A stretch of 64,000 nucleotides of DNA from Candidatus Nomurabacteria bacterium (GTDB taxonomy: Bacteria > Patescibacteriota > Minisyncoccia > Phycocordibacterales > UBA918): the NCBI GenBank assembly GCA_020632155.1, contig JACKGE010000001.1, positions 92,011 to 156,010 on the forward strand, in the 5' to 3' direction. Of the stretch, positions 8,341-42,133 are shown one piece after another. Position 1 is the stretch's first letter. The number at the start of each line of letters is the position of its first letter. The position numbers and the translations under genes were made by a program. The notes beneath the pieces were generated by a model. It did not search any database. It was not told where the DNA came from and saw only the letters and a program-made list of their open reading frames with translations.

Positions 8341-8581
8341 TCATGGGAACCACAGACGCATGCTCCTGCCTTAAACAGGTGGGCACCCTTTCCGATTCGT
8401 ATCTGAAATCTTAGCAAGCCAAGTTCTCATCACTCCTCGCGATTGCAGGCAGCCCTGAGCAAAAAATTAACCGGAACATACGTGATGTGGTTCCTTGAGT
8501 ATTATAGCAAACAGTATAGTGAGGAACACAAAATCACCTGTATGACTAAATGAAGGAGTGGGCCAAATGCGCGGCGGACAA

Positions 8582-8629
8582 GAGAAAAGCCGCGAGTCGT
8601 ACCTAGATGTACGGTGAGCGGCTTTTCTC
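8582..8629. terminator. 12-bp stem hairpin downstream of ndk (GAGAAAAGCCGC...GCGGCTTTTCTC) carrying GAGTCGTA-N-TACGGTGAG motif in its loop
   Basis: perfect 12-bp inverted repeat; part of repeated motif family. Confidence 0.55.
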
Positions 8630-12156: not shown

Positions 12157-12213
12157 CAATTTTTACAAATTTTGCTGACCCCAAAGCACAGAAACTATTT
12201 TGGATACGCGGCG

Positions 12214-12266
12214 GACAAGAAAAAAGACCCAAGTGGGACAGAGTAGTCCAAGGGTCTTTTTTCTTA
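12214..12266. terminator. bidirectional terminator between convergent cmk and secY
   Basis: AAAAAAGACCC-loop-GGGTCTTTTTTCTT; preceded by CGCGGCGGACAAGA motif shared with 8571-8583. Confidence 0.65.
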
Positions 12267-12414
12267 GCCTAACGAAATAGACTAGTTTCTGGGTGAGGAT
12301 TTTTCTTAGAGAGCGACGTCACGCACCGAAGTGAAACGTTGAGTCGTAGATAGACCTACGGTGAGACGTTGAACAAGGGAGTGTCTAGCTCTCTAGGAAA
12401 AAGACCGGCCAGAA

Positions 12415-15817: not shown

Positions 15818-16213
15818 CTACCAAATAATAAAGAGCTGTTCACCACCAACATTCTTCTGCCGTGCTTCCTCACCGGTGAGGATACCAGCTGGTGTTGAAA
15901 GGATAACGTGCCCTTTACCAAATTTAACGGGATAAATCTCTGCGACCTTACTATAGAGGCGTCGTCCTGGCTTACTGACACGCTTTACACCGCTGATGTG
16001 ATGCGCGCCGCCAGAGCTATATTTAAGGGTGACTTCAAGGGTCTTCTTTGCCCCTTTGCCTGCTTCTGCAACCTCGCCTACATAACCCGCCTCTTTGAGT
16101 TTGTTTGCGATGTGCAGCTTAAGCTTTGAAAAAGGCACAGATACGGTCGCTTTTTTGACCATACCAGCATTCTTGAGCTGTACGATGAAATCACCAACTG
16201 TGTCGTTTACCAT
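15818..16213 (-). CDS. rpsH: 30S ribosomal protein S8
   Basis: [21 protein letters not shown]... Confidence 0.92.
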
Positions 16214-16392
16214 GATGATTTCTTAATACCTGGGATGTGACCCTCGTTAGCAAGCTCACGGAAGCAGATACGACAGATATCAAAATCTCGCATGTATCCA
16301 TGCTTTCGTCCGCAAAGCTTACAACGGCGGACCACCCGACACTTGTACTTTGGTTCGCGCTCCGCGCGAACCTTAATCGATGTTCGTGCCAT
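16207..16392 (-). CDS. rpsN: 30S ribosomal protein S14 type Z (zinc-binding)
   Basis: 61 aa, CxxC...CxxC. Confidence 0.9.
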
Positions 16393-16628
16393 TAGGTTTA
16401 ATGGTTAGCACTTCGTACATAACACACAAAACGAACTGTCGTTCGCTACGGTGAGATATTGCTATGACGTTGTGCAGTGGAGCAGTATCACCTAGATGTA
16501 GTGACTGACTCCGCTGATAATCCGGCTCGCAGCCTCTGGCTGCTCGCCTTCACAAAAGTGGCTCCCATCTACTCCCAAGCCGCTTTTATGGTGCGCCTAC
16601 TATACGTGAAAATAAGGAAATAGCAAGA

Positions 16629-17108
16629 CTATTCCTGATTTAGTTCTGATCGGAGCTCCATCCATATTTGGCCAAGCCAATTTTGACCTTGCCAGTCTGC
16701 ACCTCGCCCCCAACAACTGTCTTTAGGTGAATCTTCAATCAATTTGGCATTTTCAGTTTGCCGCAGTGTCTTCTCAATGTATGGATGCTGTGAGATCTTT
16801 GCGCGACAAATATCTTTCATGACGACTCTCTTTTCGTCTTCCCAAGATGGACGTAATTTATTCTGATACTTTATAGCCAATTTAAGTGCGTCATGGGCTG
16901 AAGTAGCAGACGCTATCTCTTCAACAATACTTACATCATCGAAACCGGCGGCTTGAAATGCGTGCTCAGATGTCTGCCACAAACGTTCTTGCCACATTAC
17001 TGAAAAAGCAGCAAAGTTGGAAAAACAGTATCCGAACTCTCCTCCGTAGAACAAAACGGGGTCTGTAATCTTCTCTGAGTATGTATTTTCAGAATTGTTT
17101 ACGAACAT
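16629..17108 (-). CDS. NADAR (YbiA-like, DUF1768) domain protein
   Basis: FYGGEFGYCFSNFAAFSVMWQERLWQTSEHAFQAAGF matches the NADAR/YbiA signature. Confidence 0.7.
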   Translation of the reverse strand: MFVNNSENTYSEKITDPVLFYGGEFGYCFSNFAAFSVMWQERLWQTSEHAFQAAGFDDVSIVEEIASATSAHDALKLAIKYQNKLRPSWEDEKRVVMKDICRAKISQHPYIEKTLRQTENAKLIEDSPKDSCWGRGADWQGQNWLGQIWMELRSELNQE

Positions 17109-17133
17109 ACACTATTTTTAGCACATTATTAAA

Positions 17134-17165
17134 AACCGGCCGAGGATCACTCCCCAGCCGGTTCT
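17134..17165 (-). terminator. hairpin terminator overlapping the 3' end of ORF 17147..17824
   Basis: minus strand AACCGGCTGGGGAGTGATCCTCGGCCGGTTTTTAATAAT. Confidence 0.5.
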
Positions 17166-17824
17166 GATATGACTGCCTTCCACAGCCGCTCAAGCTCGCG
17201 CCCGATTCGCAGCCGCCACGATATTTGAAGCCGTAAGAGGTACCGATATACTCCATGAAGCCGACCATACACCCATGAGTAGACATACTTGGGCACACGC
17301 TGGAGTACCGGCGGTACTAGTTTCTGGAGACCCAAAAACGCAACCGATCGGAACAAGAAATGCTGCGTGGACCGTAGCCCATACAACACATATGGTCGCA
17401 CCAAAGGCCAGAAACCAATGATAACGATCACAAAATGACCGAAGTAATGGTGCACGACCACAAACAGTGACACGCTGAAGGTGAGCGACAGAAGTATTCT
17501 AAATGGTGTTGAAACCAGAATATTCAGCCGTGTCTTCAATAGCAGCCAGAATGCGCGGCCGTACTGGCCCACCTGCTTGGATAGGGCGTCTACTCGTTTC
17601 CGTACCCAGCGCGGCGCCAACGGGCGCAAGAACCACAACATTAGGTACTGCGGCGCTGATATCAGCACAAAGCGACGAGTCAGTACCAATATCCACGCTA
17701 CAACCGAGTCGTACGTTACCTCCCTCAAGACCCATTCAATTTGGCGAACCAGTGTGTCCCGAGGCATAGCCTCGGGCGCAAAATATGCCCCCAGCCCAAA
17801 GAGGAGGAACAGCAATTTTCGCAT
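17147..17824 (-). CDS. hypothetical polytopic membrane protein (W/R/L-rich)
   Basis: 225-aa ORF inserted between rplE and rpsN; multiple overlapping alternative-frame ORFs make coding status uncertain. Confidence 0.4.
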   Translation of the reverse strand: MRKLLFLLFGLGAYFAPEAMPRDTLVRQIEWVLREVTYDSVVAWILVLTRRFVLISAPQYLMLWFLRPLAPRWVRKRVDALSKQVGQYGRAFWLLLKTRLNILVSTPFRILLSLTFSVSLFVVVHHYFGHFVIVIIGFWPLVRPYVLYGLRSTQHFLFRSVAFLGLQKLVPPVLQRVPKYVYSWVYGRLHGVYRYLLRLQISWRLRIGRELERLWKAVISEPAGE

Positions 17825-17947
17825 TAACTCCTCCTATGCCTGGATGCGAAGAACGTTCGGCGAAACAATACAATATTTCCTCGAAAAATCAACAAAAAAC
17901 ACTCCTAAGGGAGTGTTTTTTGTTTTCTGGAAGTCGAAAGTAGAGAA

Positions 17948-18502
17948 CTAAGCAGTTTCTTCTACTTTTTGAAACGGTAAACCAATGTGCCTTAGCAGTG
18001 CCTCGGCTTCTTCCTTAGTCTTGGCGGTGGTCACAATAGTAATCGCCAATGAGAATACGTCACGAATGTCTTCGTCAGCAGTCTCTGGGAAGATAGTGTG
18101 CTCCTTGATGCCAATGGTGATATTACCCATTTCATCAATTGCTGTTGCCTTAATACCGCGGAAGTCGCGAGTCTGTGGCAATGCAATGTGAATGAGCTTA
18201 TCAAGGAAGTGCTGCATGCGCTCGCCGCGCAGCGTCACCTGATAGCCAATGATGTCACCTTCGCGTAGCTTAAACGACGCGATGGACTTCTTGGCTGGAC
18301 GCGGTGATGGCTTTTGGCCAGTGATAGTCGCCAAACGCTCAACAATGAGTGCAATGCGATTCTTGTCGTCAATACGGCCAGTACCGGTTGAAACAACCAC
18401 CTTTTCAATACGCGGTGCCTGCATGACGTTTGCGTACGAGAATGTCTCTTTGAGTGCATCAAAGGCAGTCTGTACTTTGGTTTTGATGTTTGAAGTTGCC
18501 AT
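17948..18502 (-). CDS. rplE: 50S ribosomal protein L5
   Basis: 184 aa L5. Confidence 0.92.
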   Translation of the reverse strand: MATSNIKTKVQTAFDALKETFSYANVMQAPRIEKVVVSTGTGRIDDKNRIALIVERLATITGQKPSPRPAKKSIASFKLREGDIIGYQVTLRGERMQHFLDKLIHIALPQTRDFRGIKATAIDEMGNITIGIKEHTIFPETADEDIRDVFSLAITIVTTAKTKEEAEALLRHIGLPFQKVEETA

Positions 18503-18524: not shown

Positions 18525-18836
18525 TTAAATGGTCTTGCCGGTCTTACGAGAAATGCGGACCTTTTTGGCCTCAGCACCCTCACCTTCAGTCTTGTATCCA
18601 ACACGGACCGGCTTCTTGCCTTCTAAGAGAGCGACATTTGATACGTGAATCGCACCACTCTTTTCGATAATCTGTCCTTGTGAACGTGTACGGCGATTCT
18701 TCTGATGATGAGTCTGCACGTTTACACCTTCAACAATGACTTGTTCGGTTGTTGGCATTGAGACAATAACCTCACCGGTCTTGCCTTTATCTTTACCAGA
18801 GAGGACGATCACGGTGTCTCCTTTTTTGATCTTCAT
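18525..18836 (-). CDS. rplX: 50S ribosomal protein L24
   Basis: MKIKKGDTVIVLSGKDKGKTGEV (KOW). Confidence 0.92.
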   Translation of the reverse strand: MKIKKGDTVIVLSGKDKGKTGEVIVSMPTTEQVIVEGVNVQTHHQKNRRTRSQGQIIEKSGAIHVSNVALLEGKKPVRVGYKTEGEGAEAKKVRISRKTGKTI

Positions 18837-21794: not shown

Positions 21795-21934
21795 AGATTG
21801 TAGTAACGAATAAACGACTCAAAAAGAGCCTTGTATCGCAGTGCGATTAACGGTCACACAACGACATCATCTTGTTCTTTTTTGTGCGTACCGCTGCTGC
21901 CAGGCTTTAGTACACCGAGGTTTGGAACGGCCGT

Positions 21935-21963
21935 ATACTACGGGAAACTAAGGGGATTGTCAA
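21935..21963 (-). promoter_or_regulatory. putative sigma70-like promoter for rpsS block (TTGACA-17-TAGTAT on minus strand)
   Basis: needed because a terminator follows rplB; sequence-only prediction. Confidence 0.4.
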
Positions 21964-22029
21964 TGTTCTTGCTGAAACGCGCCGGACATGTTTTATTGGT
22001 TATAGAGAACATGTTCTAGGGAGGCTTCA

Positions 22030-22467
22030 ATGAAGGAACATACGCTCCGTCGAATCACTGTGGCCGTGTTTTTTGCACCTTTTTTGGTGAGTTGTCAGTA
22101 TTGCTACGAACTACAGACAGAGATGGCCCCGCAAATGATAGCGGGTAAACCATGGACACCTGCAATGCAAGCTTTTTGGTTTAGGTACACCCAAACCAAC
22201 AGCGTGATGATGGTGTCATTGGCATTATTGATTGTTCTACATTTCTGGAAGTCAGGATCAAGGTCTCGAGCCGCAGATCTGGTGAGATATCTGTACTTCG
22301 GTCTACTTGAAGGACTTACTATTGCCGTTGCGACATACACCTACGGAATCAGTGTGGTATTCACCACGACAACCGCAGAGTGGTTTTCCTACTTTTTGGT
22401 GAGCTGGGGCCTTTATATTGGCCATTTGCAGAGCCACGAACTTTCTCGACTTCTACCCAAAAACTAA
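22030..22467 (+). CDS. hypothetical membrane protein (145 aa), opposite strand, inserted between rplB and rpsS
   Basis: SD GGGAGG 6 nt before ATG; about 4 TM. Confidence 0.55.
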   Translation: MKEHTLRRITVAVFFAPFLVSCQYCYELQTEMAPQMIAGKPWTPAMQAFWFRYTQTNSVMMVSLALLIVLHFWKSGSRSRAADLVRYLYFGLLEGLTIAVATYTYGISVVFTTTTAEWFSYFLVSWGLYIGHLQSHELSRLLPKN

Positions 22468-22480
22468 GGAGGCGAATAGC

Positions 22481-22675
22481 ATGTGTGATCTTGTTCATTC
22501 CATGCATATCAAGGCTTGCGGTGGCGAATATGACGGGAAACACCCCATCGCCGAGCTCAAGAAAAAAGCAAAAAGAGGCGACGCCAACGCAAAAAGCGCA
22601 CTGCTCCTAAGGGCGCAGCTCGGCACATCTGATTCGCATGAGGCGGCAAAAGCAGTGCAAGAACTCGGCCTCTGA
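22481..22675 (+). CDS. hypothetical small protein (64 aa)
   Basis: AAGGAGG-8nt-ATG (MCDLVHSMHIKACGG...); internal start of ORF 22418. Confidence 0.45.
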   Translation: MCDLVHSMHIKACGGEYDGKHPIAELKKKAKRGDANAKSALLLRAQLGTSDSHEAAKAVQELGL

Positions 22676-22725
22676 AGACAAGGGGTTGAAAAAACTAATA
22701 GACTCGGCGAGGAATCGCCGGGTTT

Positions 22726-22764
22726 TCTGTTACCTAGACAAAAGCCGCGCCCTATGGGCGCGGC
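22726..22764 (+). terminator. 18-bp perfect hairpin (TAGACAAAAGCCGCGCCC-TAT-GGGCGCGGCTTTTGTCTA)
   Basis: perfect inverted repeat after small + strand gene. Confidence 0.55.
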
Positions 22765-22796
22765 TTTTGTCTAGGCATAGTGATACGCTTACTAAT

Positions 22797-22833
22797 AATC
22801 AAAAAACCTGCGCAAGGCGCAGGTTTTTTGATT
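22797..22833. terminator. bidirectional terminator abutting the rplB stop codon (AATCAAAAAACCTGCGC-AAG-GCGCAGGTTTTTTGATT)
   Basis: 17-bp stem with A6/T6 flanks; would terminate rplC-rplB transcription before rpsS. Confidence 0.65.
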
Positions 22834-27729: not shown

Positions 27730-28030
27730 AAACTTTAAGTTAATGTAAGTAATAATCCGCACACAGCTGCTTTTTTAATGCATAAAAAAGCCGTGCACGT
27801 GCACTCAGGGAGAGTGGCGCGAGAACGACACACTCTCTTTGGGCACACATACGTGTGAAAGAGCATTGATATTTACTCCCACACAGCAAAATAGCTGTTA
27901 GCGGTGGCGGTATGGTACATGAGCCGCCTTAAGATTGCAAGTGTGTTTCGTACGCCGCTTGTTGTTTGACAGCTTCCGTTTCTCTGGTACTTTAAATCAC
28001 AATTTGGCACCAAACTTAAGGAGGTTAGCC

Positions 28031-28627
28031 ATGTTCTTCAGATTGCTTCAGGCAGTTTTGTCTGCTCTTCTGTTCAGCACTGCTGCAAGCTATGCTGCGC
28101 AAAAGCAGTTGGCTATCGGCGGGCCCACGTCGCAGCCAATTGGTCACTATGGATTCTGTCAGCGCCTGCCGGCAGAGTGCCGGTCGAATGCGAAAGATTA
28201 CAGGCTGGTCTTGACGCGGGGAATGCTGCTACAAATAAGCGGAATCAACCGGCGCGTAAACGAGTCAGTCCGTCCTCGCAACGACATCGATGTCTACGGA
28301 CGCGATGAGTGGTGGGCTTTGCCGAGCGATGTCGGTGACTGCGAGGACTACGCGCTGCTCAAGCGGCAACTATTGCACCAAGCCGGCATACCGCTATCTA
28401 GCCTTCTAATTGGCGTAGTGCGACAGAAAAATGGCGATGGTCACGCAGTGCTGGTCGTTCGAACAACCAGAGGCAACTTGGTCCTCGATAACCTGACGGA
28501 CAAAATTCGCCCATGGGATGAGGTTCCTTACCGTTGGCTCAAGGTCCAAGCGCCAGAACACAGCGGCAAGTGGCGCACCGTGAATCTCGTTGATCTTGAC
28601 CCAGCCACCGCCTCACTGTCGGAGTAA
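28031..28627 (+). CDS. secreted transglutaminase-like cysteine protease (BTLCP/LapG-like, COG3672)
   Basis: AAGGAGG SD; signal peptide MFFRLLQAVLSALLFSTAASYA; YGRDEWWALPSDVGDCEDYALLKRQLL...DGHAVLVVRTTRGNLVLDN matches the BTLCP Cys-His-Asp core; higher GC than flanks. Confidence 0.7.
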   Translation: MFFRLLQAVLSALLFSTAASYAAQKQLAIGGPTSQPIGHYGFCQRLPAECRSNAKDYRLVLTRGMLLQISGINRRVNESVRPRNDIDVYGRDEWWALPSDVGDCEDYALLKRQLLHQAGIPLSSLLIGVVRQKNGDGHAVLVVRTTRGNLVLDNLTDKIRPWDEVPYRWLKVQAPEHSGKWRTVNLVDLDPATASLSE

Positions 28628-31933: not shown

Positions 31934-32557
31934 ATGGTAATACACTGCCACTTACAAATTATGAGAACATCGCTTATGCATTACGTCGAGGCCTATATCT
32001 CCCTCCTTATGGAGGTTGTAGATGATATCGTGGCTGCTTTTGAGTCTGAGACCACCCGCGGTTTTATGATTGCAGCTCTGGTACTTATACCAATCTTTGG
32101 TTCGATGTTCTTTTTTGCGGTTCTCGTTAATGCAGCAGAGTATCTGGCTCCAGCGCCAACGGTCAATATTGAAGCGGCGCAACGCACTGACAATACTATC
32201 GATATACTCCTTAGTGATAATACTGGGCCAATAAACGCTGCTGAGGTAGAGCTCCAGTTTGATCCCTCATATATATATGTATCTGACCTCACTATTGCTC
32301 CGGAGCTATGTGAAGAACGTTTTGTCATCACCAAGGTCATCGATAACGAGATAGGACGTATCTTCTACCAGTGCGGCACTGTCACTCCTTTTACCGGCAC
32401 AAGTACGGTACTAGCTACCCTAGAGGTAACACCACTTGCACTTGGCACCTCTACGCTCTCATTTGCTACCAGTAGCACTAACATACTCGCCCACGACGGT
32501 TACGGCAGTAATGTTACCAAACAGCGGCTAGATGGCTTGTACGCATTCGGCAGCTAA
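31934..32557 (+). CDS. membrane-anchored protein with cohesin-like beta-sandwich domain
   Basis: TM segment MIAALVLIPIFGSMFFFAVLV then ...VELQFDPSYIYVSDLTIAP...TVLATLEVTPLALGTSTLSF... ; start uncertain. Confidence 0.4.
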   Translation: MVIHCHLQIMRTSLMHYVEAYISLLMEVVDDIVAAFESETTRGFMIAALVLIPIFGSMFFFAVLVNAAEYLAPAPTVNIEAAQRTDNTIDILLSDNTGPINAAEVELQFDPSYIYVSDLTIAPELCEERFVITKVIDNEIGRIFYQCGTVTPFTGTSTVLATLEVTPLALGTSTLSFATSSTNILAHDGYGSNVTKQRLDGLYAFGS

Positions 32558-32614
32558 TTTCTGAAAGAATGCGGTATGATACGCGTATGGACCTCTAACC
32601 ATACGCGTTTTCAT

Positions 32615-34672
32615 ATGAACAAAGATTTTGATGTAGTTGTCATTGGTGCCGGCTCCGGTGGTCTTACCGCCGCGATCGGTTTTGCCAAAGTGGGCAAACG
32701 CGTACTTCTTATTGAACGCGAACATATGGGCGGTGAGTGTACGAACTCCGGCTGCGTACCGAGTAAAGCCCTACTCCATTTTGCCAAAGAGCACTACGCC
32801 GGAAACCCGAAGTACGCCAAGCTGGGTGAGGCACTTCCCTACGTGCGCTCCAAGATAGAAGCTATCCGCGCCGAGGAAAGCGTAGACGAGCTTGAGAAAC
32901 ACGGTATTGCTACCGTTATGGGTGAAGCAAAATTTACTGCTCCTTGTGTCGTTGAGGTAAATGGGACTGCGTATCGTTTCAAAAAGGCCGTTATTGCAAC
33001 TGGTTCATCGCCACGCACAACAGAGATTGCTGGACTCAATACAGAAGATCTTCTCACCAACCAAACTATATTTGGGCTTACGGAATTACCAAAACGACTT
33101 CTTATCATCGGCAGTGGTCCTATTGGCCTAGAGATGGCCAATGCCTTTGCCCTCCTTGGAACTAAGGTCACCATTGCAACCATCGATACTACCCTCGCAC
33201 GCCTCGAAGAACCGGCGGTAGCTAAGTTGCTACAAGAACGTTTCAAGGAACTCGATATCGCCGTCATTTTGCGTGCATTTATCAATGAAGTACGCGGTCG
33301 CGAGGCGGTGATTGATATCAAAGACGGTGAGACGATAATCGGACAGGAAACAGCCGCGTTTGACAAAGTGCTTGTCGCCATTGGACGAGTACCCAATCTC
33401 CCTCAAGGACTCGAAGCGGCTGGTATTCAGTTTAACCAGCACGGTATCGAGGTTGATAGCCAGCACCGCACCAGCAATCGACATGTCTATGCAGTTGGTG
33501 ATGTAGCGCAACGTCTTAAGTTCACTCATACTGCCAACGACGTAGCGCGGCAGGTGGTCACCCACGTAGTAAGTCGCGGACTTCTGCGCTTTGATAGTGA
33601 CAAAGCGGTGCCGAAAGTAACCTACACCGAACCGGAAATGGCTCAGGTTGGACTATCGTACGCAGCAGCAGTGGAAAAATATTCAGAGGCGGAAGTGATG
33701 CGTATTGAGGTACCGTATGAAGATAGCGACCGCGCCAAGACTGACAACAATACAACGGGTGTAGTTATTGTAAGCGTGCGACGCCTTAGTGGTACCGTAC
33801 TCGGAGCTAGTATTGCCGGCCAGCACGCCGGTGAGCTCATTAGTATCTTTACACTGGCTATCGATCAAAAGTTATCACTCTGGCGCCTTCGCCGACTGAT
33901 TTTTGCCTACCCCACCTATGGCCTCCTGATAAAGAAGGCAGCGGATGTATTTTTTGCCGAGCAGCTGAGGAACCTCAAGGCTGATTTTCTCTTCCTGCTT
34001 AAAAAACACGCTCCCAAACTTATCGCTCTTACATTCTGGCTTGCACTCATTTACACCTTCCAGCACTATCGTATTTCACACCACCTTACCTACCGCGACA
34101 TGCTATTGTCGCTCTATGAGTTCTTCACCATGTCGATGTGGGGGCCACTTATCTATATTGTGCTCTACGCCTTGCGACCACTCATCCTCTTTCCAGCCAC
34201 CCTCCTGACCGCGCTTTCCGGTGCACTCTTTGGACTCTGGTGGGGCATTCTCTACACCGTAATTGGAGAAAACATGTCAGCGAACTTAGCCTACAGTATT
34301 GGTCGCTTCTTTGGTAAGGACCTTCGCCTTGAGGACACCTTTATGGGCCATTGGGTTGAGTGGCTACGAGCACGCCCGTTTGAGTCGGTACTATTTATGC
34401 GTCTCTTTTACGTACCATTTGACCTTGCCAACTATGGCTCTGGGGTACTTAAGGTATCGTGGCCTAGTTATGCTCTGGCAACGTTTGTCGGTATCATCCC
34501 CGGACTTACCACCTTTGTGGCGCTTGGCGCTGCCGTTGACGTCATGGAGCTACGGATGGAAGGACTTAGTTTCAACGCCTTTGATCCACGGTATCTGGCA
34601 CTTTCGGTAAGTCTGTTCGTGACCTCGGTGGTACTGTCGCGATATCTAAAACGCTGGAAAGCGACACAATAA
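32615..34672 (+). CDS. fusion: FAD-dependent pyridine nucleotide-disulfide oxidoreductase (mercuric reductase/dihydrolipoamide dehydrogenase-like) + C-terminal DedA/TVP38-TMEM64 membrane domain
   Basis: DVVVIGAGSGG, redox-active GGECTNSGCVPSK, NAD-binding GxGxxG; C-terminal ~230 aa polytopic DedA-like segment. Confidence 0.75.
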   Translation: MNKDFDVVVIGAGSGGLTAAIGFAKVGKRVLLIEREHMGGECTNSGCVPSKALLHFAKEHYAGNPKYAKLGEALPYVRSKIEAIRAEESVDELEKHGIATVMGEAKFTAPCVVEVNGTAYRFKKAVIATGSSPRTTEIAGLNTEDLLTNQTIFGLTELPKRLLIIGSGPIGLEMANAFALLGTKVTIATIDTTLARLEEPAVAKLLQERFKELDIAVILRAFINEVRGREAVIDIKDGETIIGQETAAFDKVLVAIGRVPNLPQGLEAAGIQFNQHGIEVDSQHRTSNRHVYAVGDVAQRLKFTHTANDVARQVVTHVVSRGLLRFDSDKAVPKVTYTEPEMAQVGLSYAAAVEKYSEAEVMRIEVPYEDSDRAKTDNNTTGVVIVSVRRLSGTVLGASIAGQHAGELISIFTLAIDQKLSLWRLRRLIFAYPTYGLLIKKAADVFFAEQLRNLKADFLFLLKKHAPKLIALTFWLALIYTFQHYRISHHLTYRDMLLSLYEFFTMSMWGPLIYIVLYALRPLILFPATLLTALSGALFGLWWGILYTVIGENMSANLAYSIGRFFGKDLRLEDTFMGHWVEWLRARPFESVLFMRLFYVPFDLANYGSGVLKVSWPSYALATFVGIIPGLTTFVALGAAVDVMELRMEGLSFNAFDPRYLALSVSLFVTSVVLSRYLKRWKATQ

Positions 34673-34702
34673 AAAAGTCCGAGCACTGCTCGGACTTTTT
34701 TA
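34671..34702. terminator. bidirectional terminator AAAAAAGTCCGAGC-ACT-GCTCGGACTTTTTT
   Basis: perfect 9-bp stem, A6/T6 flanks. Confidence 0.7.
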
Positions 34703-34913
34703 TAGTAGTGTCAGCCTTATTTCTTTTTAGCGGCCTTCTTCACTGCCTTCTTGGCAACTTTTTTCTTTTTGTCCATGATCGTTTGCATAGCTAGTAATGC
34801 ATGATCACCTGTAGTGTGGGGAAGTTACTCCTTGGCCCAAGGGCGCTTCATGTACCAAAATTATACAAGCAAGTTTCAAACTCCAGATACAAGCAGGTGT
34901 GAATACCACAACC

Positions 34914-35897
34914 CTACTTCAACATATCTGCTTTGGTAGCAGAATCGAATACCCCAGTTTCTGTAAGGTCATTCTCTGTTTGGTATTCACGCAGGGCAGC
35001 GGTAGTAATAGAGCCATAGTACCCAGTGGCACCTGCGGCTTGTAGCTGTGCGTGTGCTGGTCCATCACTACGCAGTAGTAAGTACGTTTGAAGGAGTGAA
35101 ACGGCGGTACCTTGATCACCAACAGTAAGTCCCGTTGGAAGCGCTGTCGGGATGCTGTCAATAAGTTTGTTCAGCGTCTCTAGGAGCTTGGCTTCAGTCA
35201 CCACGCCGGCGTCCTCAAGTGCCTCGGTGAATTCATCCGGCAGATCGTAACCGGCCTGCAGCGCTGCTTTAAAGTCAGCAGGGAAGTTCTCAACGAGGAG
35301 TTCTGTGTACGTATCTTTATCATCAACTCCGTCAAGAATGCCTTCGAGGAAAGATACTTTTTCTTTTAAGGTAAACGTGTCTGTCAAACGAGGATAGGGA
35401 TCAAGCGCCTCTCCATCTCTAATTTCAAAGTGCAAATGGTAGGCAATGCCTTTGGCGTTACCAGTATCTCCAACCGTACCGATGAAGTCGCCTACATCAA
35501 GAACGTCTCCCTCATCCAACTCTTCATTAATGGCATCAAGGTGCATGTAGACAAATTGTTCACCCCCCGGATTGGCAGTGCGGACATAGAGACCGGAACT
35601 TACACCGTCGCCGATTCGCAGTACCACTGCCTCTGTCGGTGAGACAATTGGTGTGCCTTGTGGTGCGACAAGGTCTTGGCCTTCATGTGTACGTGTACCA
35701 TCACCACGTGGATCACCAAAATCTGGTGTCACCGTATCGATATCGACTCCAAATAACACTGGTACAGGAAGGTCCTCAACAATATCATCGTCAAGTCTCT
35801 CGACCTTACTGCTATATGAATTGTAGCTACTGCGGGCTTCAGCCACCGGAACAGCTGTAATGAAGACGAGGCTGGCCAAGAATAAAGCTCTATACAT
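34914..35897 (-). CDS. secreted M23 family metallopeptidase with C-terminal peptidoglycan-binding domain
   Basis: signal peptide; HEGQDLVAPQGTPIV...GDTGNAKGIAYHLHFEIR; PG_binding_1-like C-terminus. Confidence 0.8.
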   Translation of the reverse strand: MYRALFLASLVFITAVPVAEARSSYNSYSSKVERLDDDIVEDLPVPVLFGVDIDTVTPDFGDPRGDGTRTHEGQDLVAPQGTPIVSPTEAVVLRIGDGVSSGLYVRTANPGGEQFVYMHLDAINEELDEGDVLDVGDFIGTVGDTGNAKGIAYHLHFEIRDGEALDPYPRLTDTFTLKEKVSFLEGILDGVDDKDTYTELLVENFPADFKAALQAGYDLPDEFTEALEDAGVVTEAKLLETLNKLIDSIPTALPTGLTVGDQGTAVSLLQTYLLLRSDGPAHAQLQAAGATGYYGSITTAALREYQTENDLTETGVFDSATKADMLK

Positions 35898-35984
35898 AGG
35901 CACAAACAAAATTACATGTATTACTTACTAGTGTTGACGAGTTGGCCTCGCCCTCCTTACCTTTACAATTTATTGTATTGCTAC

Positions 35985-36045
35985 TCTAGTGTAAACGACT
36001 TTTTTCCAAAACTACGGCCGTTTATCTGTAGCTCGAGAATATGCT
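35985..36045 (-). pseudogene. orphan duplicate of the 3' end of the AlkC-like gene (encodes ...HILELQINGRSFGKKSFTLE*)
   Basis: about 85% identical to 36512..36580 (…HVLELQINGRSFGKKIFLLK*). Confidence 0.5.
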
Positions 36046-36134
36046 TCCTATAGTACCTAGCGCTTTTAATAACTTTACTTATAGCCTCAGTAGTGTTGTC
36101 ATGACTCTTAAAACGCTAGGAGGCAGAGTAATAG

Positions 36135-36162
36135 AAAACCTCCGGCTGAAGCAAGAGGTTTT
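36135..36162. terminator. hairpin AAAACCTC-loop-GAGGTTTT
   Basis: 8-bp stem with A/T flanks. Confidence 0.45.
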
Positions 36163-36185
36163 GGGTATAAAAGTCCCGAAATAAA

Positions 36186-36422
36186 CTAACGACCAATCGG
36201 ATCGATGGCTTCTCTTGGAAAATACTCGTTCGGATGGTTCTCAAGCGTGTAACCATAACCAGGGTGCTCACTCAATACTATAGTTTCTTCCCCAGTGGAT
36301 TTAATACGCACCATACGACCAGCCGGAATCGGTAGTGGTTGAATGGGGTTACCCTTACGGTGCCAGCTTATCTGACTTCTTTTATCCAAGGTGCGGCGAT
36401 GCTTTTCACGGATTGACGGCAT
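36186..36422 (-). CDS. hypothetical small protein (78 aa)
   Basis: SD GGGAG upstream of ATG. Confidence 0.5.
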   Translation of the reverse strand: MPSIREKHRRTLDKRSQISWHRKGNPIQPLPIPAGRMVRIKSTGEETIVLSEHPGYGYTLENHPNEYFPREAIDPIGR

Positions 36423-36511
36423 GGTTGCTCTCCCTTTCCTGCTACGAGCGTAGCATAAACGTGATTTGATTGAAATACTAGTTTTTATCTAACCTAAAAA
36501 CCATCACATTT

Positions 36512-37654
36512 TTACTTTAGTAAAAAAATTTTTTTTCCAAAACTGCGACCGTTTATCTGTAGTTCAAGAACATGTTTTCCAGGGTATAGCGTGCGAGTAC
36601 TCATAAGCCTGAGAGTATGATTCTTCTCAAGGTGCACGGATTCATTTGGTCTCAGTACCAACTTGCTGAGTTTATAGGTTTTTGGCGCCAGTTTGCCGCT
36701 AGCCTTATTAAAATGAATGATGTAATCGGCCATGACATTTTGTTCTTTGTGACTGGTCGAAGTGAGTGTAAACGAAAATGGAACTGACTCACCCACCCGA
36801 ATGCTCTTACTCCCAAGCGTAAAAGCAGATACCCTGAGATGACCAGTATCAAACCCAATCAGTCGAAGCGCGTCGCTGTCTCCTGCGCGCACCAAGCTAC
36901 GCAGTGCATGGTTGGTGAGGTACGAGAGCTCCCGCGCACTTTGTCGTTTTTCTTTATTCCATTTGCGTAGGAGCCTAAGGGCCAGTGACTTATCTACCTT
37001 AGTGACATCATTAAGATGATTAGCAACTGAGCGCACCACGTACCGCGTTCGGTCAGCATGTAATCTGTCCAGTATCGGTGCTAGTTTTTTTGGTGGCACG
37101 GTAATTTTCTTTGCCCACGGTAGATTCGGGCGCGTACCTTCACTTGCAAGCCTGCGGACATGATAGTTTGTATCTTTTGACCATTTCTCTACCGCCTCCA
37201 GTGTCTCTTTAGGAAAAGCGTTTAAAAAATCGCGAAGCGCTCCCTCAGCTGAGAAGCGTTTGGTAAGTTCACGCAATGCTGCCAGCGAACGCGCAACATG
37301 TTTTTCGGTACACCCGTAGGTGGCAACAAAGTACGAATACGGGGCGTAAATAAAGTCACCAAAGTCATTATCAGTTTTGCCTTCATCAAGTACTGGTGGC
37401 TGCGCAGCAAGAATAATGGGGAGTGCATCAGAATATGCACTTGGTAAAAACTCTCGCAACCGGTCGCGAATACCCCGAACCCGTTCCATGAGTTCTTGCT
37501 CGGGAAAATCCTTGAGAACTGCCTTTATAAAGGCTTTGGTAGCAAACTCGGGATAGACCGCTTCAATTTCTTTAGCCAACTGTTCTACCTTGCGCCGATT
37601 AAAGAGTTCGTCCTTAAGTGAAAATTGCTTTTCAGTCTGACGGTGTTTTTTCAT
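36512..37654 (-). CDS. DNA alkylation repair protein, AlkC/AlkD-like HEAT-like-repeat glycosylase with C-terminal Ig-like domain
   Basis: 380 aa; HVRRLASEGTRPNLPWAKK helical-repeat region; beta-rich C-terminal about 100 aa. Confidence 0.55.
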   Translation of the reverse strand: MKKHRQTEKQFSLKDELFNRRKVEQLAKEIEAVYPEFATKAFIKAVLKDFPEQELMERVRGIRDRLREFLPSAYSDALPIILAAQPPVLDEGKTDNDFGDFIYAPYSYFVATYGCTEKHVARSLAALRELTKRFSAEGALRDFLNAFPKETLEAVEKWSKDTNYHVRRLASEGTRPNLPWAKKITVPPKKLAPILDRLHADRTRYVVRSVANHLNDVTKVDKSLALRLLRKWNKEKRQSARELSYLTNHALRSLVRAGDSDALRLIGFDTGHLRVSAFTLGSKSIRVGESVPFSFTLTSTSHKEQNVMADYIIHFNKASGKLAPKTYKLSKLVLRPNESVHLEKNHTLRLMSTRTLYPGKHVLELQINGRSFGKKIFLLK

Positions 37655-37754
37655 GCGTGGCTACTATTGTCTAGTGTTCGTGAAATAATGCAAGACCACA
37701 AAAACAAAAACCCTCCGGTCTGACCGGTGGGTTTTGTGTTAGACGCTCCGCTTT

Positions 37755-38171
37755 TTAGCCCCAATTGCCGAGGATATACCCAAACAGCATGAAGATGACA
37801 AACTGGTAGCCAGCCTGAACAACAAAGCGAAGCCAGCGCATTTTGCTCGATTCAGCTGTCCAGATGGCGCTGCCAGCCAAGGTCGGCATGACCATACCGA
37901 GCCAGAGCCAAAACGCCACCTCAACCCCCGATACGATATCCCAACCTTTGATAAAGTGGGCGAGAACGTACAGTTGGAGCAGTAGCACCGCGGCCTGAAG
38001 CAGGTAGTCTTTCCACATGCGCTTTTGCATGGCTTCTTTCTCTGTCTCACTTAGACTATCAGCGCCAATAATCCGCATCCACAAACGACCAAACAGAGCG
38101 CCGTACCAAATGGCTCCTACAACCATCGCCAATACGGCACAAATAATGATAGGAAGGTAATGTATTTCCAT
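37755..38171 (-). CDS. DUF1761-like small membrane protein
   Basis: start at internal Met MEIHYLPIIICAVLAMVVGAIWYG... Confidence 0.5.
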   Translation of the reverse strand: MEIHYLPIIICAVLAMVVGAIWYGALFGRLWMRIIGADSLSETEKEAMQKRMWKDYLLQAAVLLLQLYVLAHFIKGWDIVSGVEVAFWLWLGMVMPTLAGSAIWTAESSKMRWLRFVVQAGYQFVIFMLFGYILGNWG

Positions 38172-38172
38172 A

Positions 38173-38811
38173 TTACTGAACTTGTAGGTCGTAACCACCA
38201 TTAAATTGTGCGCCCATATTTTGCATCATGGTCTCCATATCCATGAAGTCAATATCAGCCGGTGGCACAAATTTACCTTGATCAACGCTCCAGATCTTGC
38301 AGTCATACCGCACGTCTTGATCTGGTGTCATTTGCCGTGCCGGCACACTGTCACCTCCAGCTGGAGTTGCTTCGTAGGTGCTGTCATCTGTCTTCATTTT
38401 TAGTGCAAAGGTTCCTTCTGCGGACTCTGACCACGTATACGAGTATTCACCATCTTGTATCATGTGCGATTCCATGACCGTGCCAGCCTGTTCCATCTCA
38501 AAGTCACCGCGCAAACGCTCGCCTGAGATATAAACCGTGCCGGCTACTGCACCGCCTGTCTCGTCGGCAACAGAGGAGAACTCACAGGTAAGATTTTTAC
38601 CGAGACCCATTAAGCTCATAAACGAGCCGAAACCTGATAGAGGTACATTGTCTTTAGTGTCAGCAGTTTGTTGACTGGCAGATGATTCAGCTTCCATACT
38701 GTCAGCGTCAGTACTCGGAGCAGACGCTGGTGCGGCCGGCCGCAGCCAGATGTAGCCTACAAGACCTACTACAATCACGCCCACAAGAAGGGCGGTTAGT
38801 TTAGTATTCAT
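38173..38811 (-). CDS. hypothetical N-terminally anchored secreted protein
   Basis: TM MNTKLTALLVGVIVVGLVGYIWL then Ala/Pro/Ser linker and globular domain. Confidence 0.55.
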   Translation of the reverse strand: MNTKLTALLVGVIVVGLVGYIWLRPAAPASAPSTDADSMEAESSASQQTADTKDNVPLSGFGSFMSLMGLGKNLTCEFSSVADETGGAVAGTVYISGERLRGDFEMEQAGTVMESHMIQDGEYSYTWSESAEGTFALKMKTDDSTYEATPAGGDSVPARQMTPDQDVRYDCKIWSVDQGKFVPPADIDFMDMETMMQNMGAQFNGGYDLQVQ

Positions 38812-38895
38812 AACCCTAGATCACTATGTATAATAAGTTCATTATACTCCCTTCCGTTTATGAGACCAGATGACGGACCGTGAGACGACGAAAAT

Positions 38896-39924
38896 ATGAA
38901 GTTCTGCATTACTATTCTCCTTTGTTTTCTAATAACATCAGTTGCCTATGGCGCGAGCGATAACGCCGGTTTTGTGGAAGGTCTGTGGTTTTCAAATGAA
39001 GTAATCATTGTCGGTGAGCCGGTGCGTATCTACGTAGCTGTTCGCAACAATACCGGCAGTGACCTCTCCGGTACGGTGGAATTTTTTGTGAACGATAAAC
39101 CTATTAGTAAAAACGAGGTTGGGGCGCTCACCGGACGCATTATCGAGACATGGGCCGACTGGACACCAACCGCTGGTACCAGTACCGTTCGCGCCGTACT
39201 CTCCGGTACACAGCTAGAGCCAGTTGGTAGCTCCTCACAACCAATCACGCTCTCCCTCACTGAATCGACGCGCACTATCTTTGCTGATATCGATACCGAC
39301 AACGATGGTATTCCAAATCAAACCGACACCGATGACGATGGTGACGGAGTGAGTGATAGCGATGAACTTGAAAACGGCACTGACCCACTTACCTACGACG
39401 AACCCGAGACAGCGACTGCAGCCAACGAAGACGAAAATGAAGTCGCTAAGACCAACACACTCACCCAAAACACATCGGGAGGTGATAGGCCAGAAGGCTT
39501 AGAGCAGTACCTAAGTGACAATCGTGCTCACAGCGCTTTTGCCGGCGTTACCGAGGTTATTAATACCACCAAGAAACAACTCGATGAGTATCGCAGTGAG
39601 CGAAGCGCCGCCTTAGAGCAGACTAATACTGAAAATGACGTAGGTGAACAAACAACTGCCACCAATACCCTTGCCAGTGAGGGTTTTGGCGCTGGTGGTT
39701 TTGGAACCATCACCCGTAGCACAACAAGTGACGCAGGTGAGAACAGTTTCTTTGCTGGACTCTTGTCACTGATCTCACACCTCTTTCATACCCTTGTCAC
39801 CTTTATACTCTTTGTTATCTCAACCATCCTTGGCCACCCCGCCTTGGTACAAGTTGGACTACTTCTCCTGATTCTCTTCACCACCTATCGCCTCGCCAAA
39901 AAGTTCGGCTCACGGAAGCAATAA
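38896..39924 (+). CDS. cell-surface protein: signal peptide, beta-sandwich domain, Ca-binding DxDxDG repeats, acidic linker, C-terminal TM anchor
   Basis: DTDNDGIPNQTDTDDDGDGVSDSDE repeats; C-terminal hydrophobic helix + KKFGSRKQ. Confidence 0.6.
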   Translation: MKFCITILLCFLITSVAYGASDNAGFVEGLWFSNEVIIVGEPVRIYVAVRNNTGSDLSGTVEFFVNDKPISKNEVGALTGRIIETWADWTPTAGTSTVRAVLSGTQLEPVGSSSQPITLSLTESTRTIFADIDTDNDGIPNQTDTDDDGDGVSDSDELENGTDPLTYDEPETATAANEDENEVAKTNTLTQNTSGGDRPEGLEQYLSDNRAHSAFAGVTEVINTTKKQLDEYRSERSAALEQTNTENDVGEQTTATNTLASEGFGAGGFGTITRSTTSDAGENSFFAGLLSLISHLFHTLVTFILFVISTILGHPALVQVGLLLLILFTTYRLAKKFGSRKQ

Positions 39925-39969
39925 AATAACTAGTGTTGCATTGAAAACCAATCCCAGTATCATACCGAT

Positions 39970-40542
39970 ATGCTATTTGGAATTGCGGGACCAACTGCCA
40001 GCGGCAAGACAACCGTGACTGATGTCCTTACTGGTGAGTACGGCGCTGCCTATATGCGCTACTCCTTGATTCTCTCCGATATCGCTACCGAGCGTGGTCT
40101 TGATCCAACCGACAAAGCAACGCTTCAAGACCTCTACGTTACCCTGCGCGAAACGCGCGGCGAAGACTGGCTGGCTAAAGAGGTACTGCAGCGAGCGCGA
40201 AACATCGACTCACAGAACATCGTCATCGAAGGCAACCGTCGTAAGGTCGACCTTGAAACCTTGAAGGCGGTGGCGAGTACGCGGGGTGAACAGCTCCTAC
40301 TCATATTTATAGATGCCTCACCAGAGACTCGCTTCGTTCGCTACAACTCTCGCCTTCTGAAACAAGGTAAACCGCGAATTGACTGGGAGGCCTTTTTGAA
40401 ATTAGAGCAGAATCCTGCCGAAGATGAGGTGCCCTTCCTGCGTGACTTTGCGAAACAACATGGGGTGTACATTGATACTGACGAATACGGTATTGAGGAA
40501 GTACAGAATCTACTGAGACAAAAAGTTGAGAAAATTTGTTGA
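39970..40542 (+). CDS. P-loop nucleoside/nucleotide kinase-like protein (dephospho-CoA kinase/adenylate kinase superfamily)
   Basis: GIAGPTASGKTTV Walker A at N-terminus; about 190 aa. Confidence 0.5.
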   Translation: MLFGIAGPTASGKTTVTDVLTGEYGAAYMRYSLILSDIATERGLDPTDKATLQDLYVTLRETRGEDWLAKEVLQRARNIDSQNIVIEGNRRKVDLETLKAVASTRGEQLLLIFIDASPETRFVRYNSRLLKQGKPRIDWEAFLKLEQNPAEDEVPFLRDFAKQHGVYIDTDEYGIEEVQNLLRQKVEKIC

Positions 40543-40618
40543 TTTTCAGACGCAGTTGCAAAAATGACTAAGTAGGAGTAAAAAGGACTATCGTCCAAAC
40601 TATTGAGAGGAAGATGCG

Positions 40619-41035
40619 ATGAGATATTTATCCGTTCTTGTGGTCGCCGGCGTAGCGTTCATCTCTAATTCTCCGAGTTTTGCGCAGGAACCAAACCAAT
40701 CGAAAGCACCGCAATTTGGCGAGTATGGGTATCGTCACCGTGACCTACACGAGCGGGGAACCATCCAGCAGCTGATGGATGTGACAGGCAAAAGCTGCTG
40801 TGATGGAGGCGATGGCGGAGAGTGCCGAGTCACGGACATCATCTGGGCCAATGGGGCGACTTTCTTCAATCACAACGGTCTTCTCTGTCCCTTCTCAATC
40901 CCAGTCAACTCGGTTAATCTCCCGCTTGGCGCCCGAGCCGTGGTTTGCGCGTCAAAAGAGCTCCATCAGGACGAGGACGGTCCTAAGGGCTGTCCGGTCG
41001 GCATCTACTGCGCCGGAGCAAGCGGCGGTTCATGA
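40619..41035 (+). CDS. secreted Cys-rich small protein (8 Cys)
   Basis: signal peptide MRYLSVLVVAGVAFISNSPSFA; higher GC. Confidence 0.55.
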   Translation: MRYLSVLVVAGVAFISNSPSFAQEPNQSKAPQFGEYGYRHRDLHERGTIQQLMDVTGKSCCDGGDGGECRVTDIIWANGATFFNHNGLLCPFSIPVNSVNLPLGARAVVCASKELHQDEDGPKGCPVGIYCAGASGGS

Positions 41036-41042
41036 AACAATA

Positions 41043-41078
41043 GGCCCCAGCGCGCGTCGTGCGCCGGGGTTTTCTTTT
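41043..41078 (+). terminator. GC hairpin + T-run (CCCCAGCGCGC-GTCG-TGCGCCGGGGTTTTCTTTTG)
   Basis: stem with one mismatch, T-rich tail. Confidence 0.55.
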
Positions 41079-41120
41079 GTCTCAAAATAAATGAGTCCAG
41101 TATTTAGAGAATATGACTCA

Positions 41121-41395
41121 AAATTAAAACGGCAGATTTACTGCCGCCGGACATGTCCTAGGTGATTAAGCTGGGTTACTGGACCGACACCCAGACCGCA
41201 CTTCCGTGACGCAGGCGACCAGCGCCTGGAGGCCCTGAAACGCGTGGTGCTCAGACTAGCTGTAAGTGGCCAATCTTCACAAAAATTCTGATTGTTAGGT
41301 GGTTCTCTTGCGAGAACGCTTCGTCGGTCCAGCAGTGCGCAGCTTAGCACTTACTGGAATAGTAGCGTGTATGAGAAAAAGCGCAAGAGTCGTAT
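41121..41395 (-). ncRNA. candidate RT-associated structured non-coding RNA (3' of RT, same strand)
   Basis: bounded by hairpin straddling RT stop and hairpin+U-run terminator (41130-41146); 10-bp inverted repeat CTGGACCGAC/GTCGGTCCAG, GCAA-loop hairpin GTTCTCGCAAGAGAAC, palindrome GGACATGTCC; no convincing ORF. Confidence 0.3.
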
Positions 41396-42133
41396 TCACT
41401 CCCGCGCTTTTTTATTCAACCGGCGCACCTGTTTTCGCCAAGCCCGGATGGACCATCTCTGGTCAGCATCGTACCCAGAGCTGTACAGCTTTTGCATGGT
41501 CTTCGTTTTTGGATCGATGCGCGTGCCGCGTATTTCGTACCCTAAAACCTCAAGCGGCTCTTCCAAGGTATTGACCCGTTTGGTCTTGCTGTCGTTAAGC
41601 ACGAAACCATATCGTCCAACAACCCTTCTTACGCTCGGACCTACACGCTTACCAATACGCTTGTCCGAAGAAAGCAGTACGTCATCCACATATCGCGTGC
41701 AGTGCAGACCCGCTGCTTCACAGTACTGTCCGAGCTCAAAGTCTAAGCCGCCAAAGCGGCAATAGATCTCAAACAGATACGGTGACGCAGGCGCACCTTG
41801 GATCAAGCCACCTTCACCCTGTTCGTGGAAGAAGTGGTCACGCGGCTCCAGCAACCTGAGGTCAATCCCAAGGCCATCTACAACTGCATGGAGTCGTTCG
41901 TACGTAACATAGTCGAACGCACTTTTGAGGTCAGTCTTGAAATAGTAGTGGTGTCCTCGCCGTGTGTGTCCGATAATGTCCAGGCCTGGGTCGTGATATT
42001 CGATAGGGCCGGCGTCTTTCAGGAACAGCGTGTGTACATCTCGAACGGCAGTGTTTGGACTGTACGCAACTCTACCGCCATCTAACGTTAATCTTTTAAA
42101 CCCCGGAGGGGTCAGATGCCTAATTTTGGCCAT
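41396..42133 (-). CDS. compact reverse transcriptase (RVT_1 only, 245 aa)
   Basis: RT motifs FKTDLKSAFDYV, QGAPASPYLFEIY, RYVDDVLL (YxDD), LNDSKTK, LGYEI; SD GGGAG-7-ATG. Confidence 0.8.
   Translation of the reverse strand: MAKIRHLTPPGFKRLTLDGGRVAYSPNTAVRDVHTLFLKDAGPIEYHDPGLDIIGHTRRGHHYYFKTDLKSAFDYVTYERLHAVVDGLGIDLRLLEPRDHFFHEQGEGGLIQGAPASPYLFEIYCRFGGLDFELGQYCEAAGLHCTRYVDDVLLSSDKRIGKRVGPSVRRVVGRYGFVLNDSKTKRVNTLEEPLEVLGYEIRGTRIDPKTKTMQKLYSSGYDADQRWSIRAWRKQVRRLNKKARE

Follow-up and report, generated by a model that had tools for sequence, protein, structure and literature searches.

A predicted transcription-unit boundary and a candidate S8-mimic leader between rplE and rpsN in a Paceibacterota clade

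The genes of the conserved spc operon follow the order rplN-rplX-rplE-rpsN-rpsH. In a 64,000-nucleotide (nt) stretch of Candidatus Nomurabacteria DNA (assembly GCA_020632155.1, contig JACKGE010000001.1, positions 92,011 to 156,010), referred to at its full length as the window, 1,555 nt separate the rplE stop codon from the rpsN start codon and hold two non-ribosomal open reading frames (ORFs), here called MEM and NADAR. An earlier note on this DNA had regarded the NADAR gene as embedded in the core ribosomal operon. Are these two genes part of a ribosomal operon, or has the operon itself come apart at this point? The evidence favours the second answer. Taken as a whole, our reading, which we consider probably correct, is that of a split cluster with accessory genes in the gap and an S8-mimic leader on the rpsN unit. 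Every gene of the locus lies on the minus strand, and the coordinates given earlier for the 1.5-kb non-ribosomal block were reproduced. The ribosomal genes and the signals between them are as follows.

18525-18836, minus strand: rplX, part of the ribosomal cluster (ORF list and Pfam).
17948-18502, minus strand: rplE, encoding L5 (Pfam Ribosomal_L5 and L5_C), final gene of the putative upstream ribosomal unit.
17881-17924, minus strand: T1, predicted terminator hairpin after rplE (terminator scan; stem 17891-17924; inverted repeat I2).
16599-16626, minus strand: predicted rpsN promoter, TTGCTA-16-TATAGT (promoter scan), 2 nt past the NADAR stop codon.
16207-16392, minus strand: rpsN, encoding a 61-residue S14 of type Z, the zinc type (Pfam Ribosomal_S14), head of the putative downstream unit.
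15818-16213, minus strand: rpsH, encoding S8, the proposed repressor (ORF list); it overlaps the rpsN stop codon.

Past rpsH the gene order is rplF, rplR, rpsE, rplO, secY, and no tRNA or tmRNA genes were found. In a contiguous spc operon rplE stands directly before rpsN; here a 1.55-kb gap, two predicted terminator hairpins and a conserved promoter lie between them. The first hairpin, T1, is a perfect stem of 15 base pairs, 100% complementary, that stands between an A run and a T run, and its fold reaches -20 kcal/mol (z -5.0). Because it is flanked by both runs, it could terminate transcription in both directions. Comparable hairpins follow rplE in two relatives, L018 and L029 (L numbers are our labels for the contigs compared). 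The rpsN promoter is conserved in five aligned lineages, and the scan gave equivalent matches in L029 and L028.

Comparing rplE-rpsN synteny among relatives, a check proposed in the earlier note, revealed a junction that varies, being empty, filled with other cargo or left with rpsN detached. The window has the order L5-MEM-NADAR-leader. L018 has L5, a terminator, NADAR and the leader; L016 has L5, an unrelated 199-residue ORF and the leader; and L028 has L5, a 250-residue ORF on the opposite strand, a promoter and the hairpin described below. In L011 and L013 non-ribosomal genes, and not L5, come before MEM and the leader. Nothing is inserted in L029-L033, where the 186-nt rplE-rpsN spacer comprises a palindromic A-run/T-run hairpin, TTGCAA-16-TATAGT and the S8 hairpin. 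The junction ORFs of L016 and L028 matched no family when scanned against Pfam. The boundary of terminator, promoter and leader is thus present even without an insertion (L029) and its cargo is variable, which contradicts the claim that NADAR is embedded in a core ribosomal operon. Taken together, these results make it likely that the rplE/rpsN junction is a transcription-unit boundary in this clade and not a continuous operon carrying an insertion.

Variable cargo would also be expected if the block were a recent insertion, brought in by a mobile element or by horizontal transfer, or if the contig were an assembly chimera, and the GC content, which falls from about 0.49-0.51 in the flanks to about 0.43 over NADAR, points the same way. 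We nevertheless regard this as extremely improbable. The MEM-NADAR arrangement was found again, identically, where the species had been assembled independently from several samples (L001-L006 and L022-L023, including GCA_020428955.1), and an assembly artefact is therefore excluded as its origin; long reads across the locus likewise argue against a chimera. A mobile element was ruled out, as the block lacks terminal inverted repeats and direct repeats at its flanks; nor was an integrase or transposase found. Moreover, the MEM-leader and NADAR-leader junctions are common to lineages whose ribosomal proteins are only ~75% identical, so they must be old. The identical NADAR protein is labelled Candidatus Kaiserbacteria in one source, and related contigs are labelled Paceibacterota or Patescibacteria.

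If rpsN heads a unit of its own, the unit would open with the conserved sequence upstream of this gene, in which we identified the following elements.

16393-16598, minus strand: structured rpsN leader (DNA-level conservation, RNAalifold, minimum free energy z -4.2).
About 16551-16590, minus strand: P1, a helix predicted by RNAalifold.
About 16524-16548, minus strand: P2, flanked by the invariant segments UGUGAAGGC and GCCGGAUU.
16479-16512, minus strand: hairpin mimicking the S8 site of 16S helix 21 (seven-lineage alignment, covariance model), with loop UACAUCUAG.
16430-16447, minus strand: P4, a hairpin 3' of the S8-site hairpin, terminator-like in the window (terminator scan).

The region 5' of rpsN can be aligned at the DNA level with the same ~75% lineages, and RNAalifold on five lineages returned three helices with 25 pairs, 11 of them showing compensatory changes. 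The third helix reads GGAG-U-CA-GUCAC-UACAUCUAG-GUGA-UA-C-UG-CUCC in the window. In 16S helix 21 the S8 core consists of a G597-C643 pair with a U641 triple, a U598-A640 pair, an invariant bulged A642 and an A595-(A596-U644) triple (PMC4176348). The corresponding window positions are 16505 (G597), 16504 (U598), 16488 (A640), 16487 (U641), 16486 (A642), 16485 (C643) and 16484 (U644). The E. coli 16S sequence and numbering used for this comparison were checked against annotated 16S genes.

We aligned seven lineages (the window, L011, L013, L016, L018, L028 and L029). In all of them the hairpin has ten pairs and a 2-nt bulge on the 3' side, that is, an asymmetric internal loop. The 597-643 equivalent is G-C and the 598-640 equivalent U-A in seven of seven lineages, the bulged A642 equivalent is always A, and position 641 is U in six and A in L011. 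The 595/596/644 triple is AA/U in L011, L013, L018 and L029, CA/U in the window, UG/C in L016 and GA/C in L028; the L016 combination corresponds to a G-C pair (compare Thermus C596-G644). The likeness is closest in L018 and L029, whose cores AAGUCA.../...UGAUACUG match E. coli 16S positions 595-600 and 638-645, and the L018 core, AAGUCAG...CUGAUACUG, equals positions 595-601 and 637-645. Beyond the core the hairpin differs from helix 21: a 9-nt loop takes the place of the distal helix, and the lower stem is unrelated in sequence.

Covariation supports the pairing. Across the alignment 92.5% of the cells are paired and six of the ten pairs change on both sides; none of 500 shuffled controls reached the observed score, and shifted registers fell to 34-52% paired. 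A covariance model of the hairpin, R1, gave one match per locus, each time on the coding strand shortly before rpsN (E 1e-9 to 1e-15), with nothing else significant in the 186 kb searched and no second match in the window. In the more distant L034-L043, rpsN follows a protein of >1000 residues, and the 222-nt spacer before it yielded neither an R1 match nor a canonical S8 core; the leader is therefore clade-limited. By PDB sequence search the rpsH product is a canonical S8, in which the Tyr and Ser-Thr positions that contact RNA are retained. Taken together, these results point to the rpsN-leader hairpin as a predicted S8 operator.

Could the hairpin have another role in cis, for instance as an RNase processing site, a transcription attenuator, a site for another ribosomal protein or a ligand sensor, with its likeness to helix 21 coincidental? 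Several features of the leader would suit such a role. Nothing in the known S8 site corresponds to the invariant P1-P2 module (UGUGAAGGC...GCCGGAUU), the conservation of the 9-nt loop ACAUCUA exceeds the needs of S8 binding, a terminator-like P4 follows the hairpin, and both the variability of the 595/596/644 triple and the insignificant score of R1 on E. coli helix 21 loosen the link to S8. However, the invariant positions are exactly those that define the S8 core (the G-C pair, the U-A pair and a two-nucleotide bulge ending in A) while the surrounding stems covary; the hairpin lies within the S8-encoding mRNA, in keeping with known operators of ribosomal proteins (PMC3616713); and no Rfam riboswitch or leader matched. 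We therefore consider a different element unlikely.

Several observations weigh against a split cluster governed by S8. The triple is canonical (AA/U) in only four of the seven lineages on which the covariation rests, and two of these lineages, L016 and L018, were found with a leader-derived pattern, though not one taken from the hairpin stems. On E. coli 16S, R1 located helix 21 in the correct register, yet the match is not significant (4.7 bits, E 8), and it is with helix 21 of E. coli that our candidate was compared. In five lineages the hairpin lies at least 75 nt 5' of the AUG, so that simple occlusion of the ribosome binding site would fail there, and the invariant P1-P2 module and P4 have no explained role in a scheme based on S8. 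With regard to the boundary, the terminators, promoters and transcription start are predictions from sequence, the absence of a terminator between NADAR and the rpsN promoter makes read-through possible, and MEM stands 5' of the rpsN leader in three lineages, which may be due to a functional tie and not to inherited gene order.

Under the split-cluster explanation that we favour, the ribosomal cluster of this Paceibacterota/Kaiserbacteria clade would be transcriptionally divided between rplE and rpsN, the upstream unit ending at the terminator after rplE and the downstream unit, rpsN-rpsH-rplF-...-secY, starting from its own conserved promoter. The downstream transcript would open with a structured leader of ~200 nt, one hairpin of which would copy the S8-binding core of helix 21. 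S8 made in excess from the unit's second gene would bind this hairpin and repress the unit. Direct competition with the ribosome would suit L028 and L029, where 12-20 nt separate the end of the hairpin from the AUG; for the remaining five lineages, in which a further hairpin, P4, follows, attenuation or structural sequestration would be the options. The gap of the window would house two independent accessory genes, MEM and NADAR, and a true inter-operon gap would allow genes to be gained and lost without harm to ribosomal protein expression. This analysis gave no evidence of a ribosomal role for either gene.

The logic would be that of S8 control of the E. coli spc operon, exerted at a different site. 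An S8 operator of that operon was reportedly described by Cerretti et al. in 1988. In E. coli the S8-interacting RNA overlaps the rplE start, where S8 represses (Fu et al. 2013, PMC3616713), and the title of that paper reports an element confined to Gammaproteobacteria. The two systems would share an mRNA hairpin that copies the internal-loop core of helix 21 within an S8-encoding transcript, and feedback repression of spc-cluster genes is the predicted outcome here as well. In contrast, our candidate lies in the 5' leader of rpsN and does not overlap the rplE start codon; it belongs to a larger leader with the additional elements P1, P2 and P4, heads a unit with its own predicted promoter, occurs in a Patescibacteria clade and, in sequence, is not homologous to the E. 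coli operator. The window element is thus predicted to work like the E. coli operator without being a member of that family.

The leader also resembles known ribosomal leaders (L10, L20, S15 and others in Rfam; PMC7247131), in being a conserved structured 5' untranslated region (UTR) of a ribosomal protein operon with a putative rRNA mimic. Unlike them, it matches no family of Rfam 15: with E<=5 as the limit, a search of the locus gave nothing in the leader, and nothing in the whole window reached a gathering score. A term search of the paper by Eckert and Weinberg (2020, PMC7247131), which presents 20 new leader candidates, gave no occurrence of uS8, rpsH, Parcubacteria or candidate phyla; S14 was mentioned there in an unrelated context only. 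An exact-pattern scan for the leader returned three loci in genome contigs, two of which were new lineages, and three in metagenome contigs, two of which repeat the L016 sequence while the third, L020, was rejected as a chance pattern match inside a coding region. A leader peptide starting at the AUG inside P1 was also discarded, as the short ORFs differ in frame and length between lineages (in L016 the AUG is followed at once by UAG, and in L013 the frame stops inside P2).

The remainder of the leader may have its own link to rRNA. The 3' flank of P2, GCCGGAUUUAU, weakly resembles 16S positions about 553-566, and the 5' flank of the covariance model aligned weakly to E. coli 16S 558-574 (L044 1175-1191; 4.5 bits). 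In addition, the invariant leader segment GCCGGAUU(U)AU.AG (window 16524-16590, minus strand) resembles the conserved 16S region just 5' of GGGCGUAAAG, and this segment and the helix 21 mimic stand in the same order as in 16S rRNA. The leader may thus copy or derive from a longer 16S stretch, and the resemblance suggests, as a lead only, a wider rRNA mimicry by the P1-P2 module. A more far-reaching version of the S8 reading holds that the rpsN leader represents an undescribed S8-responsive leader class restricted to the Paceibacterota clade, in which the S8 site is joined to P1 and a UGUGAAGGC-P2-GCCGGAUUUAU module in the order of 16S ~553-650. Such a leader might come from, or mimic, a larger piece of the central domain and could recruit a second factor, and the boundary would serve as a safe landing site for MEM, NADAR and orphan ORFs. 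We put this version forward tentatively, at slightly less than an even chance.

In the earlier note the 236-nt spacer before rpsN was described as carrying strings of a motif family. The spacer does carry conserved sequence, but the strings are not enriched, their counts lying within chance (8 against 3.2 expected with one mismatch, and 2 against 0.8 expected); one of the strings, ACCTAGATGTA, is the loop of the conserved leader hairpin. The resemblance within the motif family stems from a nested hairpin (outer stem, CUCACC, inner hairpin, GACUC, outer stem) at 8594-8618 and 12341-12365 of the window, both on the minus strand, just 3' of ndk and of secY. Its inner and outer stems differ between the two copies, and the two exact pattern matches compare with 0.5 expected. 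Another motif, CTTGTCCGCCGCG, occurs with at most two mismatches at 8570-8582, 12207-12219, 21978-21990, 44313-44325 and 49874-49886, all on the minus strand (5 against 1.6 expected), directly after two terminator hairpins and also in the rplB/rpsS and rpsL/rpsG spacers.

What, then, are the two genes in the gap? The features concerned are listed below.

17825-17892, minus strand: promoter-like region and 5'UTR of MEM, as read from the sequence; the layout is kept in L011 and L013.
17147-17824, minus strand: MEM, a hydrophobic Arg-rich ORF of 225 residues (homologues P0121-P0124, alignment), a rare lineage-specific family.
About 17131-17165, minus strand: T2, predicted terminator hairpin of MEM (-28.4 kcal/mol, z -4.69), spanning the stop codon and followed by a U run.
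16629-17108, minus strand: NADAR gene of the YbiA subfamily, 159 residues (Pfam NADAR, TIGR02464, 2b3w match).

For NADAR, the identification as a YbiA-like gene was borne out. The protein matches Pfam NADAR (PF08719) at 6.9e-29, with 101.6 bits against a cut-off of 35.1, and TIGR02464 with 108.5 bits against 73.7, and its sole solved relative is E. coli YbiA (PDB 2b3w, 1.4e-23). The score against the anti-phage NADAR model NF053876 fell far short (70 bits against a cut-off of 240). At the subfamily-defining position (E125 of the Phytophthora nicotianae NADAR), Glu marks YbiA, Asp the DarT1-linked BC4488 subfamily and His the phage NADARs, and reports of an association with DarT are confined to BC4488 (PMC11125620). 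The window protein keeps Glu125, Asp130, Trp133 and Trp89 in a single "naked" domain without fold extension; its KLIE(125)DS aligns with KLVEHT of E. coli YbiA, the equivalence of Glu125 being drawn from sequence alignment alone. In its single naked domain of ~160 residues and its passing of both TIGR02464 and PF08719 it resembles E. coli YbiA and other orphan NADARs of that subfamily, from which it differs in genomic location, as this location changes in every relative.

A link to DarT-like toxins had also been suggested, but it found no support. In addition to having Glu in place of Asp, the window NADAR lacks an adjacent DarT gene, and no ADP-ribosyltransferase Pfam family was found among the called neighbours at the window locus or in five orthologue contexts, nor among the 30 window ORFs scanned. 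With the DarT1-NADAR (DarTG1) and YarT-YbiA pairs it shares the NADAR fold, those systems hydrolysing guanine-linked ADP-ribose in vitro; unlike them, it has no ADP-ribosyltransferase found beside it. Orthologues with 76-81% identity occupy four unrelated neighbourhoods, none near ribosomal genes, twice adjoining NUDIX genes and once RelB/YafQ. The NUDIX proximity appears in two unrelated contexts, in L009 (649-1092 and 6466-6921) and in L024 (2-385), where the gene is partial, its Nudix identity was read from translation alone and a RelB/YafQ pair lies downstream. This proximity hints at a common link to ADP-ribose or nucleotide metabolism.

Is NADAR, with or without MEM, then a functional member of the ribosomal operon, reversing ADP-ribosylation in an antitoxin-like manner or protecting the translation apparatus? 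YbiA-family NADARs do strip ADP-ribose off guanine in vitro, and one is the antitoxin to YarT (PMC11125620). NADAR occupies this junction in two lineages, the window and L018, which are colinear between its stop codon and the rpsN promoter, with 87% identity over 138 nt and an equal stop-to-(-35) distance, and share a TGTGCTAAA box just 5' of the gene. This colinearity argues that the adjacency of NADAR and leader is inherited and not recent, and transcripts of NADAR would meet no terminator before the rpsN promoter. However, T1 and T2 both lie upstream of NADAR, the closest orthologues stand away from ribosomal genes, most relatives with the junction have no NADAR, and neither the subfamily residue nor the neighbouring genes supply a DarT-type partner. 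When the spacers between MEM and the leader in L011 and L013 were searched by tblastn (E<1; for L011 at stricter thresholds only), no remnants of NADAR came to light. We therefore judge membership in a ribosomal operon very improbable; the placement of NADAR is ordinary gene turnover.

The other gene, MEM, had been taken as a Trp- and Arg-rich polytopic ORF with its own terminator. That it is coding is supported by its homologues, which form three clusters with 50-55% identity and 58 invariant columns, including the motif FLRPLAPRW, and MEM is evidently a genuine gene. A profile search of 1.84 billion representative proteins gave five matches at E<=0.001 in all, one being the close homologue P0124; the four further relatives were remote (E about 1e-10 or weaker), and two of them matched no family when scanned against Pfam. 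MEM itself had no match in Pfam or PHROG and reached only noise level in NCBIfam and PADLOC, so that a relationship to PTS IIBC (E 0.006) or KwaA (E 0.018) was dismissed. Its composition (10.7% Arg, 4.0% Trp) and hydrophobic segments at about residues 39-59 and 100-150 make a polytopic membrane protein plausible, though the support is weak; an AlphaFold model was all-helical and unreliable (pLDDT 50.4, pTM 0.24). The residues His130, His190, Asp39 and Glu18 are invariant, and the neighbouring rpsN encodes a zinc-ribbon S14.

The terminator claimed for MEM was confirmed by prediction as T2, and terminator-like hairpins likewise lie 3' of MEM in L011 and L013. Upstream of the gene are TTGATT (17887-17892), 16 nt, TATTGT (17865-17870), a GAAnGTTCT box and the Shine-Dalgarno sequence AGGAGGAG (17828-17835), and this layout of promoter-like region, 5'UTR and Shine-Dalgarno sequence is conserved across three lineages (window, L011 and L013). 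The region scores under the threshold of the promoter scan; we infer a promoter function for TTGATT-16-TATTGT. With its own promoter-like region, Shine-Dalgarno sequence and terminator, MEM looks like an autonomous, monocistronic unit. It directly precedes the rpsN leader in three lineages, at 17147-17824 in the window, 3068-3718 in L011 and 255-941 in L013.

Further breaks occur in the translation-gene clusters of the window, at rplB/rpsS, tuf/fusA and fusA/rpsG. The rplB-rpsS break (21795-22831) spans ~1 kb and contains an opposite-strand hydrophobic ORF of 145 residues (22030-22467, plus strand), and tuf and fusA are parted by an opposite-strand Peptidase_C93 gene (27935-28627). The distance between fusA and rpsG is ~12 kb (31934-43452); this interval includes a gene (32576-34672) that joins a pyridine-nucleotide disulfide oxidoreductase to a VTT domain, together with an M23 peptidase, an EamA transporter and a 245-residue RVT_1 reverse transcriptase (41396-42133, minus strand).

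Ribosomal protein autoregulation is well mapped in E. coli, and its known operators are narrowly distributed; to our knowledge, almost nothing is known of such regulation in the Candidate Phyla Radiation. As far as literature and Rfam searches show, ribosomal protein autoregulation is undescribed in the phylum Patescibacteria. What would be new here is the putative S8-mimic leader before rpsN, a variation on a known regulatory principle. If true, a separately evolved S8 mimic at another position, before rpsN and not rplE, would be another case of convergent rRNA mimicry and a rare handle on gene regulation in uncultured bacteria with reduced genomes. It would also explain how foreign genes are tolerated in a "core operon", since the cluster would consist of two operons with a gap that is free to evolve, and this putative inter-operon gap is a hotspot of gene turnover in the clade. 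For annotation, odd genes between ribosomal genes in such genomes should not be taken as ribosome-linked by default; boundaries should be looked for first.

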